This document shows positions 39,992-43,710 of a stretch of DNA of 64,000 nucleotides, piece by piece; position 1 is the stretch's first letter, and each line of letters opens with the position of its first letter. The position numbers and the translations under genes were made by a program. The stretch comes from Candidatus Fermentibacteraceae bacterium (GTDB lineage: Bacteria; Fermentibacterota; Fermentibacteria; Fermentibacterales; JCC-6). The notes under the pieces were generated by a model that worked only from the letters and a program-made list of their open reading frames with translations, had not been told where the DNA came from and made no database searches. The DNA lies in contig JBGSZS010000018.1 in the NCBI GenBank assembly GCA_041750285.1, positions 301,514 to 365,513 of the forward strand, in the 5' to 3' direction.

Positions 39992-41554
39992 ATGCGACTG
40001 TTGCCAATTCTGTTTCTGATCGTAGCTTCTTCCGTTTTCGCAGCCCGGGTGAACGGGCCTTCCGAAGCGGCCGACCTCGTCATGGGCACCATGATGCTCG
40101 ACATGGACAGGGTCGAGGTCAGGGTCTTCCCGGCCATTCTCGAGGAGGGTTCCGTTGTCGGGGCATGGTCTTACCCTGGCGTTTTCGCGCCCTTCCAGTC
40201 CTATCTTGTACTGGTTGACGACTTCGCCCTGGCCAACTGGGAGCACCCCTGCCGCTGGGTCTTCGTTTCCCCCCAGGGTGATGTCAGCACTGAACGCATG
40301 ACCGTCCCGCCCGACTTCTACGCACGCATGAGCATTGAATACAGCTCACTCCCCGATATCTCGAACCTGATCAAGGGGCAGTACGAAGACTTCATCGCCT
40401 GGTTCGAGCCCAATGTCCAGGCAACACCCGAGCAGGGTCAGCAGATGTACGCCTGGGTCATCTCCGGCGGAGCCAACATGGGCAACAACCACATCCGCTA
40501 CTACGGCGATGTCCAGTTCATCTACAACGTTCTCGTTCACGACTACCTCATCCCGGATGACCACATAATCGTCTGCTTCGCCGACGGAACGAACCCGGCG
40601 CCGGACCAGTCGGGAGGTCTCAACTCGAACCCCGACTTCGACGATGACGGCGACACGGACATCGACTACGACGCCACGACAGCCGGCGTCACCAGTGGAT
40701 ACAACGCAATTGCCGGCATGGTGGGTCCCGACGACCATCTCTTCATCTTCACCACCGATCACGGCGGTCAGGGCAAGGATGGCGGCAATCTGCCGACCGA
40801 GGTCCATCTCAATCTCTGGAACGCCACTCTCAACGACGACGACTTCATGACCATGCTCAATGGCATCTCTGCTGCGTCGATCAATGTCGTGATGGAGCAG
40901 TGCTTCTCCGGCGGTTTCCAGCAGGAAGTCATCCATGCCGCCGCCGACCAGCCCCGTTCCTTCGCCAGCGCCGCCAATGCATCCGAGTCAAGCTGGGCGG
41001 GCCAGACATATCCTCAGTACGACGAGTACGTCTACTTCTGGACTGGCGCCGTTCACGGCAGCAGACCCGCCGGCGGTTCCTACCCCGCAGGCGCACTCCC
41101 GGGCGACCCCGACCTTAACAGCGACGGCTACATCTCCATGTGGGAAGCGCACGACCGCGCGAAGGCCTGGGACTACTACGCCCAGAGCGGCCAGGAACAT
41201 CCCCAGTGGGACGACCTGCCTGACAGCTGCGGTGAGCTCTACTTCCTCGGCGGCCCCATCCCTGTGGGCACCGAAGGCGGCTTCGTGGAAGTGCTTCCCG
41301 CAACGGGTCTCGGCATCAGCGTGAACCCCGTGAATTCCGGCGCAACGGTGAGCTTCCACATGAACACCACCGCCGTCGCCGAGCTTCAGGTTCTCGACCT
41401 GGCCGGCCGTGTTGTCAGCACGGTCATTTCCGGCATCGTCCAGGCCGGCAACCAGTCTGTTCTTGTTGACTTCTCCGAGCGTCCCTCCGGCATCTACCTG
41501 CTCCGCCTGTCCACCGAAGGCTCCGTCCAGACCCTCAAGGTAGTCCGCTTCTAG
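39992..41554 (+). CDS. Secreted clan CD cysteine peptidase (C13/caspase-like) with T9SS-like CTD
   Basis: Signal peptide; ISGG..N..RY; FTTDHGG (His); MEQCFSGGF (Cys); LDLAGR.V..SGIYLLRL. Confidence 0.85.
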   Translation: MRLLPILFLIVASSVFAARVNGPSEAADLVMGTMMLDMDRVEVRVFPAILEEGSVVGAWSYPGVFAPFQSYLVLVDDFALANWEHPCRWVFVSPQGDVSTERMTVPPDFYARMSIEYSSLPDISNLIKGQYEDFIAWFEPNVQATPEQGQQMYAWVISGGANMGNNHIRYYGDVQFIYNVLVHDYLIPDDHIIVCFADGTNPAPDQSGGLNSNPDFDDDGDTDIDYDATTAGVTSGYNAIAGMVGPDDHLFIFTTDHGGQGKDGGNLPTEVHLNLWNATLNDDDFMTMLNGISAASINVVMEQCFSGGFQQEVIHAAADQPRSFASAANASESSWAGQTYPQYDEYVYFWTGAVHGSRPAGGSYPAGALPGDPDLNSDGYISMWEAHDRAKAWDYYAQSGQEHPQWDDLPDSCGELYFLGGPIPVGTEGGFVEVLPATGLGISVNPVNSGATVSFHMNTTAVAELQVLDLAGRVVSTVISGIVQAGNQSVLVDFSERPSGIYLLRLSTEGSVQTLKVVRF

Positions 41555-41583
41555 GGGACGGACTTAGATAGATTAGTTTGCTG
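41553..41583 (+). repeat. Left inverted repeat AGGGGACGGACTTAGATAGATTAGTTTGCTG
   Basis: Matches the reverse complement of 42561-42591 with 3 mismatches. Confidence 0.9.
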
Positions 41584-41590
41584 GCTTAAC

Positions 41591-41622
41591 AAGAAGGCCT
41601 GGAGTAACTTCCAGGCCTTCTT
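41591..41622. terminator. Perfect 13-bp hairpin (bidirectional terminator or REP-like structure)
   Basis: AAGAAGGCCTGGA-gtaact-TCCAGGCCTTCTT. Confidence 0.7.
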
Positions 41623-41635
41623 CCATATGGGTGTA

Positions 41636-42487
41636 CTATGCTGTGGTTGCTGTGTGTTCTTTTCTGGAGATACATCTGGCAAGAGCAGCTGAGGCTGACG
41701 GGGTGGCGATACCCAGGTAGGAAGCTGCTTCGGTGATTGTGAACCCACAAGCGCAGACGGCTTCTTCAAGAAAATCCTCTCGAGCCCTGGAGAGATGGCT
41801 CGTTCGGCCACGGCCCCTGATCGCATCAGCCGTGACACGGTGTATCGAGGCTATGGTTTCGATAACGGCATCAAGGTTCGAAACTCCTTCTTTTATCGAC
41901 TGCCTGTCTTTGAAACCGCTTGCGACAGATATCTCTCCGTCGGAGATTTGCGTGTCCTGTCTGACTTCGTTGAAGTATTCATCCCTGCTGCCAAAGATGG
42001 CGCATGCCCTGTTGAAATGGGATAGATCGTCAATTCGCGGTGACACTATCTCCCTGTGTCCACACCATGGGTAGCTGTCAAGTTCGGCTATGCTGTTCAC
42101 CACCCCGTGCTTCAAAGGGTTTTTATTAACATAGGCAAAAACGGTCCGGCAGTACGATTCGGTTCCTGCAAGCCTGGATTTGTAACGGCCCTGAAAAAGA
42201 TACCCCACCCTGTTGTACTTCTCGTTAAAGTGCAGAGAATATCCTGTTAGCGCCCTCCGTATGAATGTTGCCAAGGGCGTGGTCCCGGTCTCGGTGAGCA
42301 GGTGGAAGTGGTTCGGTAGGAAAGACCAGGCATGAATCCTCATGCCGGTTTCCCTCGATAGATACTTCAGCCGGCACAGGAGGTCGTCATAGTCATCAGG
42401 ATCACGGAATATTGCCTCCCTGTTGAGACCCCTTGAGATCACATGCTGCAATGCACCCTGCGCGTCGTATCTTGCCTGTCGTCCCAT
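41636..42487 (-). CDS. REP-associated tyrosine transposase-like (Y1 HUH) protein with C-terminal DnaA-C-like HTH
   Basis: M.R..R, HVISRG.N...IF, PNHFHLL (HUH), G.LFQGRYKS, YVNKNP..HG, YPW, then a helical tail ..SRAR..ITEAASYLG. Confidence 0.9.
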   Translation of the reverse strand: MGRQARYDAQGALQHVISRGLNREAIFRDPDDYDDLLCRLKYLSRETGMRIHAWSFLPNHFHLLTETGTTPLATFIRRALTGYSLHFNEKYNRVGYLFQGRYKSRLAGTESYCRTVFAYVNKNPLKHGVVNSIAELDSYPWCGHREIVSPRIDDLSHFNRACAIFGSRDEYFNEVRQDTQISDGEISVASGFKDRQSIKEGVSNLDAVIETIASIHRVTADAIRGRGRTSHLSRAREDFLEEAVCACGFTITEAASYLGIATPSASAALARCISRKEHTATTA

Positions 42488-42560
42488 ACAGGTAAGTACG
42501 GCTCAAACCTCAATGGATTCAAGGCTCTCAGTTATATCGCAGCACAAGAACAGGTTAGCT

Positions 42561-42591
42561 CAGTAAACTAATCTTTCTTAGTCCGTCCCCT
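42561..42591 (-). repeat. Right inverted repeat AGGGGACGGACTAAGAAAGATTAGTTTACTG
   Basis: Partner of 41553-41583. Confidence 0.9.
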
Positions 42592-43710
42592 GTACTCGGC
42601 AATGGGGTCGACTGGGAGGTTGCTGGTTTCGCGCCAATGCTGGACAACGGGACGGACATCGGTGACGAAGGCATCACGGAGAACACGGTTGGCTCCTGTC
42701 ACGTCGGGTGTCTCCTGAAGCTGCTTGAGTTCGTCGGGGTTGACCAGAGACGCACGGGCCAGGGCGTGCAGCGTGTTCTCCACGGCAGTGAGCATGTTCT
42801 CCATGGGGTCGTCCACCCGGGTCTCGACCTTCACCTCGATGGCAAGCTTGTCGAGGGCGCACAAACCCGCCCTTTCAGCATTGAGCAGGTTGAGGAAGAA
42901 GCGGAAGAGCGCTCCGGCGTCCATGGAGCCGGCCGGCAGGGCACCCATGCCGAGCCGGTTGTCGCTGATGGCAACACGGCCAAGGATCTTCTGGTGAAGC
43001 ATGGAGACCATGACGCTGTCGAGGCTTTCACCGGGCAGAAGGCTTCCTGTATCGAGAAGAAGCTTGCAGGAAGGATCGGTTTCCCGGCAGAGCCACGCCG
43101 CAGTACCCCAGTCGGGAACCGCCGTGCAGAAGTATGTCGGGTTGTAAGGGCGGAACCCGAGAAGCATGCTCTCACTCTTGCGGATCTTCAGGCCGATCTG
43201 GCGCATTCCCTTGAGTATGGAGTCCAGCATCTCAACGGTGTTCTTCTCACCGGGGGAATCGGCTCCGTCGGGTATCCAGAGAAGGAGCTGTCGGCAGTTG
43301 ATGTCCCGCATGAGCTGCTGAACGCTGAGAATGTTGTTGATGCTTGCCACCCTTACCTCGGGGTAGGGGCTGGTAAGCGTTCCATACATGAGCCGGTGGT
43401 TCAGCACACCCCGCTTGCGTGGAACCATGGAGTTCACGGCCAGGGTGACCGGTGTGAGGTGGCGTTCCTCGAGGATCCTGTTGACTTCTTCCGTGTCTTC
43501 CTTCTTCTGGATGTCGAGAGGGAATTCGAGGACAACTTCCCTGCACTTTCCGGTTATCTCGGCGAGCATGGCCACATTCGTAAGCCTGGACTCCACTGTT
43601 TCAGGGTCATCGTCGGTGGTGAACCTGGCGAGATTCGTGCCGGCCCGTGATAGAGACCTGGTGGAGACGACAAGCTTCAACGAGTCGAGTATTTCAGACA
43701 CAGTTTGCAT
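42568..43710 (-). CDS. L-rhamnose isomerase-like (xylose isomerase fold) protein with degenerate active site
   Basis: G.LT.P...VR, LWIPDG...PG, VPDWG, LDTG, A.LV....L...Q...D...A..L.DAF.TDVRP, P.DP...YR. Confidence 0.75.
   Translation of the reverse strand: MQTVSEILDSLKLVVSTRSLSRAGTNLARFTTDDDPETVESRLTNVAMLAEITGKCREVVLEFPLDIQKKEDTEEVNRILEERHLTPVTLAVNSMVPRKRGVLNHRLMYGTLTSPYPEVRVASINNILSVQQLMRDINCRQLLLWIPDGADSPGEKNTVEMLDSILKGMRQIGLKIRKSESMLLGFRPYNPTYFCTAVPDWGTAAWLCRETDPSCKLLLDTGSLLPGESLDSVMVSMLHQKILGRVAISDNRLGMGALPAGSMDAGALFRFFLNLLNAERAGLCALDKLAIEVKVETRVDDPMENMLTAVENTLHALARASLVNPDELKQLQETPDVTGANRVLRDAFVTDVRPVVQHWRETSNLPVDPIAEYRGRTKKD

Follow-up and report, generated by a model that had tools for sequence, protein, structure and literature searches.

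A single-copy TIRYT gene and its dispersed repeat units as a probable vertically inherited, REPIN-like partnership in a Fermentibacteraceae genus

We analyzed a stretch of 64,000 nucleotides (the window) from a Candidatus Fermentibacteraceae bacterium with a genome of 2.55 Mb in 23 contigs (contig C18, positions 301514-365513), in which a gene for a RAYT-like protein lies between long inverted repeats. The whole segment measures 1,039 bp, and an earlier note on this DNA had taken it for a compact mobile element of a new class. Its features, in window coordinates, are as follows.

41553-41590, plus strand: left inverted repeat (repeat search), whose 36-nt unit opens with GGGGACGGAC at 41554
41591-41622, no strand assigned: hairpin (perfect 13-bp stem, loop of 6 nt) that separates the left repeat from the 3' end of the gene
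41636-42487, minus strand: TIRYT/RAYT-like gene for a protein of 283 aa, present in a single copy in the genome (open reading frame and domain searches)
41645-41881, minus strand: predicted C-terminal DnaA-domain-IV-like helix-turn-helix (HTH), aa 203-281 (fold match to DnaA)
41933-42487, minus strand: N-terminal Y1/HUH nuclease domain, aa 1-185 (fold match to TnpA-REP)
42131-42133, minus strand: presumed catalytic Tyr119 in YVNKNP (read from the sequence)
42302-42313, minus strand: HUH motif NHFH (read from the sequence)
42554-42591, minus strand: right inverted repeat (repeat search), with the GGGG end of the unit at 42590

According to the repeat search, the two arms are 38 nt long, 84% complementary and spaced by 963 nt. 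Over the 31 nt aligned in the earlier note they differ at three positions, and its figure of 28 identical positions out of 31 was reproduced with the recomputed arms. The 15-mer at the repeat end, with up to two mismatches allowed, occurs twice in the window against 0.09 times expected from shuffled sequences. Both flanking genes converge on the element: the TAG stop codon (41552-41554) of the upstream gene, which encodes a peptidase C13 protein with a type IX secretion system sorting tail, overlaps the outer end of the left repeat, and the right repeat encodes the final six codons and the stop (42568-42570) of a rhamnose-isomerase-like gene. The hairpin at 41591-41622, which has an orthologous counterpart in congeneric genomes and was not called by a simple terminator scan, looks like a terminator common to the two convergent genes. 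A promoter scan of 41450-42700 returned no sigma-70-type promoter, and the organism may use other promoter types. As the earlier note had also reported for the element, no target-site duplication was visible in its flanks, nor in those of the other repeat copies and doublets described below.

The presence of an HUH motif and a presumed catalytic tyrosine, as read earlier from the gene, was confirmed by a match of the 283-aa protein to Pfam Y1_Tnp (E 6.9e-8) together with the motifs NHFH and YVNKNP, and two sources label close relatives 'REP element-mobilizing transposase RayT' (REP, repetitive extragenic palindrome). A protein search of the whole library gave 22,399 representatives at E <=0.001, the best of which were mostly 300-350 aa long; many aligned at both ends. 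In an alignment of 56 sequences, H60, H62 and Y119 were invariant and the consensus motifs were NHFH, FQ and YIHLNP, with C-terminal domains of the Bac_DnaA_C (29 sequences), HTH_23 (15) or HTH_28 (2) type. On its own, the window protein matched Bac_DnaA_C at E 0.029, and a single-protein phmmer search against the PDB yielded just E 0.16 to 4er8, so profile and fold searches were needed. Run against structure chains, the family profile found DnaA (E 1.1e-7) and Escherichia coli TnpA-REP (4er8, E 2.1e-5). An AlphaFold model (mean predicted local distance difference test score 87.3) placed a disordered linker at residues 183-199. In this model, residues 1-185 superimposed on E. coli TnpA-REP bound to a REP hairpin (4er8_A; Z 17.2, root-mean-square deviation 2.4 Å over 156 residues; Foldseek E 1.3e-8 for the nuclease domain), and residues 203-281 on DNA-bound DnaA domain IV (3pvp_A, Z 12.3; 1j1v_A, Z 12.1; 79 residues, 2.0-2.2 Å). 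TnpA proteins of the IS200/IS605 family of insertion sequences were matched as well (Foldseek to 2vjv, 2xma and others, E about 1e-4; VIA-align to 2vhg_A, Z 10.0). The fold match to DnaA agrees with the extra C-terminal HTH noticed earlier and identifies it, at the level of the predicted structure, as a domain of the DnaA-domain-IV type. The likeness extends from the fold to profile-level sequence similarity; unlike in DnaA, the domain is fused to a nuclease and not to an AAA+ initiator, and the repeat does not resemble a DnaA box.

A genome-wide search with a repeat profile (nhmmer) retrieved 31 copies of the repeat unit at E <=7e-6. The earlier statement that no dispersed REP array was present holds within the window, where there are two copies only, and fails as a picture of the genome. 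The 31 copies comprise seven inverted doublets of 131-183 bp, the pair around the gene, and 15 singles. In all doublets the GGGG ends are outermost, as they are in the pair around the gene, and the doublets fold into long hairpins (-37 to -61 kcal/mol with DNA parameters); a comparison of the doublets within this genome revealed no common sequence between the arms. Positions 1-11 of the 36-nt unit (GGGGACGGACT) are invariant apart from a single base of one copy, positions 31-33 vary freely, and the inner end is TAA, nearly conserved as (G)TAA. Arms belonging to the same pair are 93% identical (n = 8), compared to 80% for all other comparisons (n = 457); the arms around the gene are 83% alike, and those of four of the seven small doublets 97-100%. 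In a count that uses a crude annotation based on open reading frames, 16 of the 31 units overlap the stop-codon end of a frame reading into the unit, and about half abut or overlap the stop of a neighbor. Some copies adjoin terminator-like hairpins. We also observed that the unit supplies the stop, and sometimes the last few codons, of neighboring genes (window 42568-42591; contigs C4, C7, C9, C18 and C19), and that two out of three reading frames entering the unit meet TAG or TAA within six codons.

The inheritance of the gene was followed in a congeneric set of eight genomes, G000 (the window's own) to G007, with G008 and G009 from other genera. Within G000, a protein search gave one match, and the full 1,039-bp element used as query matched itself only, so that no other copy of the whole element was found there. 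Six of the eight congeneric genomes (G000-G005) have the gene between the same two neighbors, the peptidase C13 gene and the rhamnose-isomerase-like gene; the isomerase-like neighbor is the same throughout G001-G005, and the peptidase neighbor wherever the contig allows. Identity of the orthologs to the window protein (77% in G001, 60% in G002, 61% in G004, 45% in G003, and 76% and 90% for two contig-end pieces in G005) ranks the genomes in the same order as does the identity of the neighbor genes, and synonymous divergence among the syntenic congeners is 0.6-0.9 or past saturation. Relative to G001, the ratio of nonsynonymous to synonymous divergence was 0.16 over the whole gene (nuclease domain 0.05, HTH domain 0.27) and 0.05 for the isomerase-like neighbor. 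The G005 ortholog is split over the ends of contigs C10 and C16 (L023, L015), which looks like an assembly break in the gene. In G006, where the gene is absent, the flanking genes are 273 bp apart with degenerate repeat ends on both sides. The locus in G007 is rearranged, with a different neighbor gene, and its isomerase gene ends in an apparent decayed repeat end; a run of N at about 750-900 of this locus (L028) interrupts an aminotransferase-like reading frame beside the isomerase-like gene. No clean empty site was found at the gene locus among the congeners examined. Assembled contigs of four public runs contained one 'joint' that links 41583 to 42555 and is supported on one side by just 22 letters. 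It fits another repeat copy better than an excision. In run X1, depth was about six-fold up over the bin of the left repeat (41518-91) and less so over the right one, as for multi-copy sequence; one public RNA run covered little of the gene.

These observations bear on the proposal of the earlier note, namely that of an autonomous and currently mobile compact transposon, of which the whole 1,039-bp unit moves while the HTH binds its double-stranded ends and the HUH domain cuts them. The single-gene layout bounded by inverted repeats is what such a transposon would look like, and related genera contain up to 10 matches to the protein per genome. The HUH/Y1 catalytic fold is shared with TnpA of the IS200/IS605 family (IS608, ISDra2), whose ends carry subterminal hairpins. 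The present locus differs from that family in being single-copy, without multiple near-identical whole elements, in having no tnpB partner (its neighbors are the peptidase C13 and rhamnose-isomerase-like genes), and in its long inverted repeats at the ends and extra C-terminal DNA-binding domain. Mobility is also at odds with the one copy in its own genome, with the same position being kept in six of eight congeners despite such synonymous divergence, and with the kind of gene absence encountered, which is a deletion with remnants in G006 and a rearrangement with a remnant in G007. Furthermore, the gene-flanking arms are less alike than those of most small doublets (83% versus 97-100% in four of seven), and the lone 'joint' is best read as another repeat copy. 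We therefore regard a currently mobile transposon as quite improbable, and the compact mobile element was not borne out for this gene. The observed synteny, with no clean empty site among the congeners examined, corresponds to the outcome that the earlier note had itself named as refuting its reading. As far as the available text of Bertels et al. 2017 (PMC5581495) goes, duplicates are more frequent in the RAYT Group 1 discussed below than in any other RAYT group clustering apart from IS200, and plasmids carry some of its copies, so the class may move in other lineages.

The distribution of the repeats followed that of the gene. The 14-mer GGGGACGGACTWAG was present in 30 copies in G000, 32 in G001, 22 in G002, 26 in G004 and 31 in G005, all of which have the gene, whereas its reversed control gave 0-1 copies. 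It was absent (0 copies) from G003, which has the diverged ortholog, from G006 and G007, which have no ortholog at the locus, and from G008 and G009, where no protein matched or only distant paralogs were present. G003 instead has 32 copies, with one mismatch allowed, of a variant of its own, GGGGACGGAGTAAA; its consensus unit has the length and ends of the G000 unit and a different interior. In every genome that has the gene, the gene is flanked by the cognate repeat variant. In G006 and G007 no intact repeat was found by the GGGGACGGACTWAG count, and only degenerate remnants occur at the orthologous places examined: at two aligned doublet sites the flanks in G007 are only 32-52 bp apart and enclose a decayed repeat end, and G006 keeps decayed doublets of the G003 type. 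These data show that the gene and the repeat family are inherited together and vary together, and that the repeats decay where the gene is lost.

This co-variation is difficult to combine with the notion that the repeats are miniature inverted-repeat transposable elements (MITEs) of another transposase, or independent regulatory or terminator elements at gene ends, a pair of which the Y1 gene simply happened to insert between. Such a notion would account for the position of the repeats at gene ends, often beside terminator-like hairpins, and for the resemblance of the doublets to MITEs. It leaves aside, however, that across the eight congeneric genomes the repeat follows the Y1 gene in its presence, absence and variant, that the cognate variant flanks the gene wherever the gene occurs, and that no target-site duplication was seen. 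In addition, all four paralogous loci examined in related genera (L017, L019, L020, L021) have inverted repeats of their own, 32-37 nt long and about 1.0-1.2 kb apart. We thus consider this explanation very improbable. With regard to these paralogous loci, three of the four start with GGGACGGA or GGGGTCGGA, and their repeat ends include GGGGTCGG, GGGACGGA and one that is unrelated.

Taken together, we favor the view that the locus is a TIRtron, i.e. a single-copy, vertically inherited TIRYT gene with dispersed repeat units, comparable to a RAYT-REPIN system and not an insertion sequence, and we put the probability of this reading at roughly 0.8. The claim of a new element class did not survive comparison with the literature. 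The available text of Di Nocera, De Gregorio and Rocco 2013 (PMC3733652) gives the names TIRtrons and TIRYTs to RAYT-like genes that have long terminal inverted repeats (TIRs) on both flanks, and describes an end motif GGGGWSAS that is common to some, not all, TIRs, as well as TIR families that are moderately abundant in some species and occur singly, as dimers or in groups. Quentin et al. 2018 (PMC6006769), in the part available, place 20 of 26 TIRYTs in TnpA-REP subclass 2.1, all with a Bac_DnaA_C, HTH_23 or HTH_28 tail; there, the repeats are described as unlike DnaA boxes, and no REP-like sequences as having been found near subclass 2.1 genes. The same class appears as RAYT Group 1 in Bertels et al. 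2017, whose available text reports flanking 16-mers at about 12 per replicon. A literature search from 2018 onward on TIR-flanked HUH tyrosine transposases with a DnaA domain returned nothing newer on the class.

The window gene would belong to subclass 2.1 (RAYT Group 1) on the basis of printed motifs and domain content, and not of a tree. The signature of this subclass, NH[YF]H / FQ / Y[IV]HLNP, is matched by NHFH, FQ and YVNKNP, the third of which agrees at 4 of 6 positions as Y-x-x-x-NP. The locus further shares with TIRtrons the RAYT-like HUH/Tyr protein with its DnaA-C-type HTH tail, the position of the gene between long inverted repeats that open with a G-rich GGGG motif, and a moderately abundant repeat family made up of singles and dimers. 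Apart from the tyrosine motif it differs in the repeat end, GGGGACGG, which fits GGGGWSAS at 7 of 8 positions only. The host belongs to a candidate phylum (Fermentibacteraceae) that is absent from the published accounts of the class as far as these were available, and the same applies to the genus-wide synteny, the gene-repeat co-variation and the decay after gene loss. CGTC-tagged REPs, which are covered in the available text of Di Nocera et al. 2013, were considered and rejected as relatives of the unit: CGTC does occur in the repeat end when this is read as its reverse complement, but the published REPs are palindromes with 8-9-bp stems and no associated transposase.

Many of the properties described here are known from the REPIN-RAYT systems (Groups 2 and 3) of Enterobacteria and Pseudomonas studied by Bertels and Rainey. 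In both cases a single-copy, vertically inherited gene stays in the same extragenic space with flanking repeats of its own, inverted doublets that form long hairpins occur beside singles, and the repeat population follows the gene, fading once the gene has disappeared. That repeats at conserved sites can change type is a further likeness; the REPORTH preprint, in the text available, states that, as RAYTs change, the REPINs found at conserved sites 'may be overwritten'. Differences are that the unit studied here starts with GGGGACGGAC and has no GTAG tag or conserved internal palindrome, that the window protein has an additional DnaA-like domain and scores below the NCBIfam RAYT cut-off, and that there are about 30 copies rather than hundreds. 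The same preprint text associates REPINs with RAYT Groups 2 and 3 only.

The repeats were then compared site by site. For G001, the sample of 20 regions represented 21 of 23 non-gene repeat places, and 26 of 27 units had a unit at the orthologous place in G000. Orthologous units of G000 and G001 had a mean identity of 92%, and site-specific variants were often common to both. In two doublets of G001 (L056 and L071, compared with C9:18456-18595 and C7:51603-51752) the same change was observed in both arms: a single base is altered in one of the doublets, and a block of 4 nt in the other. Such changes keep the arms of the doublet complementary, which hints at hairpin-level correction or whole-doublet replacement. 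The G003 sample consisted of 20 repeat regions and excluded three places at contig ends; 13 of the 20 regions were at sites where G000 bears its own variant. In the 18 orthologous unit pairs of G000 and G003 (two of which flank the gene), positions 1-9 were 100% identical and positions 10-33 only 37%. The outer junction was at the same nucleotide in 10 of the 18 pairs, while small indels were present in the other eight. At a few sites (L037, L032 and L045) both flanks, including the inner terminator hairpin, were orthologous and only the 36-nt interior differed. Orthology of the inner flanks between the G000 and G003 lineages was modestly above control (mean 0.49 versus 0.37, standard deviation 0.19), and the inference from these flanks rests on the few clear sites only. 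The recognition helix of the HTH reads PSASAAL[A/S]R in the four compared genomes with one variant and PQRVSRILIQ in G003.

A few observations on G003 stand apart from this comparison. The G003 doublet L037 corresponds to a single unit in G000 (C9:143347), which is consistent with singles being remnants of doublets. At two G003 loci (L047 and L050), units 2.0 and 1.3 kb apart enclose genes for which the matches are an FG-GAP repeat protein and, weakly, an Omp28-like one. Mobilization of passenger genes was considered for these loci and rejected, because the enclosed genes are ordinary chromosomal ones and their G000 orthologs carry only one repeat. Another candidate that we rejected was a conserved REP-like hairpin in each unit: the ACTNAG/CTTAGT stem of the G000 variant is weak, has a T:T mismatch in most copies, and has no equivalent in the G003 variant.

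The exchange of interiors at shared sites could be explained in two ways. In the first, which we put forward tentatively as a possible though by no means probable extension of the TIRtron reading, the nuclease would be a maintenance enzyme for about 30 gene-end units that rewrites their interiors in place and does not move its own gene, and interiors at the same sites would have been replaced together when the recognition helix changed (PSASAALAR to PQRVSRILIQ). Much of this mechanism already belongs to the TIRtron reading that we favor: the protein would act in trans on the repeat units and not on its own gene, its DnaA-like domain would bind the variable interior, which is specific to the lineage, and its HUH/Tyr site would cut at the invariant GGGGACGGA end. 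This action would keep copies alike, and over long times it would replace interiors in place. Under the extension, the interior of the 36-nt unit would be recognized in the form of duplex DNA. The earlier idea of an HTH that recognizes the repeats and an HUH domain that cuts them is plausible.

The second explanation dispenses with overwriting in place and invokes precise excision of the old copies, followed by site-specific re-insertion of copies of the new variant at the same targets. Y1 enzymes of the IS200/IS605 type excise precisely and insert beside a short specific sequence, as known from work on IS608, and the small indels that set the junction apart in 8 of 18 unit pairs are in line with this. 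Re-insertion sits less well with the other ten pairs, whose outer junctions coincide to the nucleotide, also where they lie within the final codons of genes, and with the sites where both flanks and the inner terminator hairpin are orthologous and only the 36-nt interior is different. Moreover, re-use of 13 of 20 regions would need a very specific target. We consider re-insertion unlikely, albeit a scenario to be reckoned with.

Several points weigh against the TIRtron reading and its extension to maintenance in place. The window protein scores 56.2 bits with the NCBIfam model NF047646 (REP_Tyr_transpos), below the cut-off of 80, and both the motif-based class assignment and the incomplete fit of the repeat end to GGGGWSAS belong here too, as does the crude annotation behind the gene-end count. 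The usual single-strand hairpin substrate of Y1 enzymes is not evident in a single unit; since no hairpin within the single unit is conserved across both variants, any single-strand structure would have to come from the two arms of a doublet. Cutting and binding are activities that we infer for the whole class. The copies in G000 and G001 evolve mostly by descent, with site-specific variants kept, and homogenization, if real, must therefore be slow or episodic. Finally, the link between recognition helix and repeat interior comes from a single lineage contrast.

The window gene would thus be a further TIRtron, and what is new is the comparative evidence for a vertical partnership of gene and repeats in which the sites stayed fixed and the interiors changed in concert. 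The finding is ordinary as a claim of a new class; what deserves further attention is the proposed replacement of the interiors in place. The genus provides a natural experiment for the DnaA-HTH branch, with five species that have one repeat variant, one species (G003) in which the gene has diverged and the same sites bear a diverged variant, and two species without the gene that have only decaying repeats at the sites examined. It makes testable how enzymes of this class act on their repeats and whether specificity is determined by the HTH. If true, the reading of maintenance in place would describe the first REPIN-like, vertically inherited partnership in the TIRYT (Group 1) branch, and a natural case in which a protein directs the concerted evolution of short dispersed repeats, with many of the repeats providing host genes with their stop codons.

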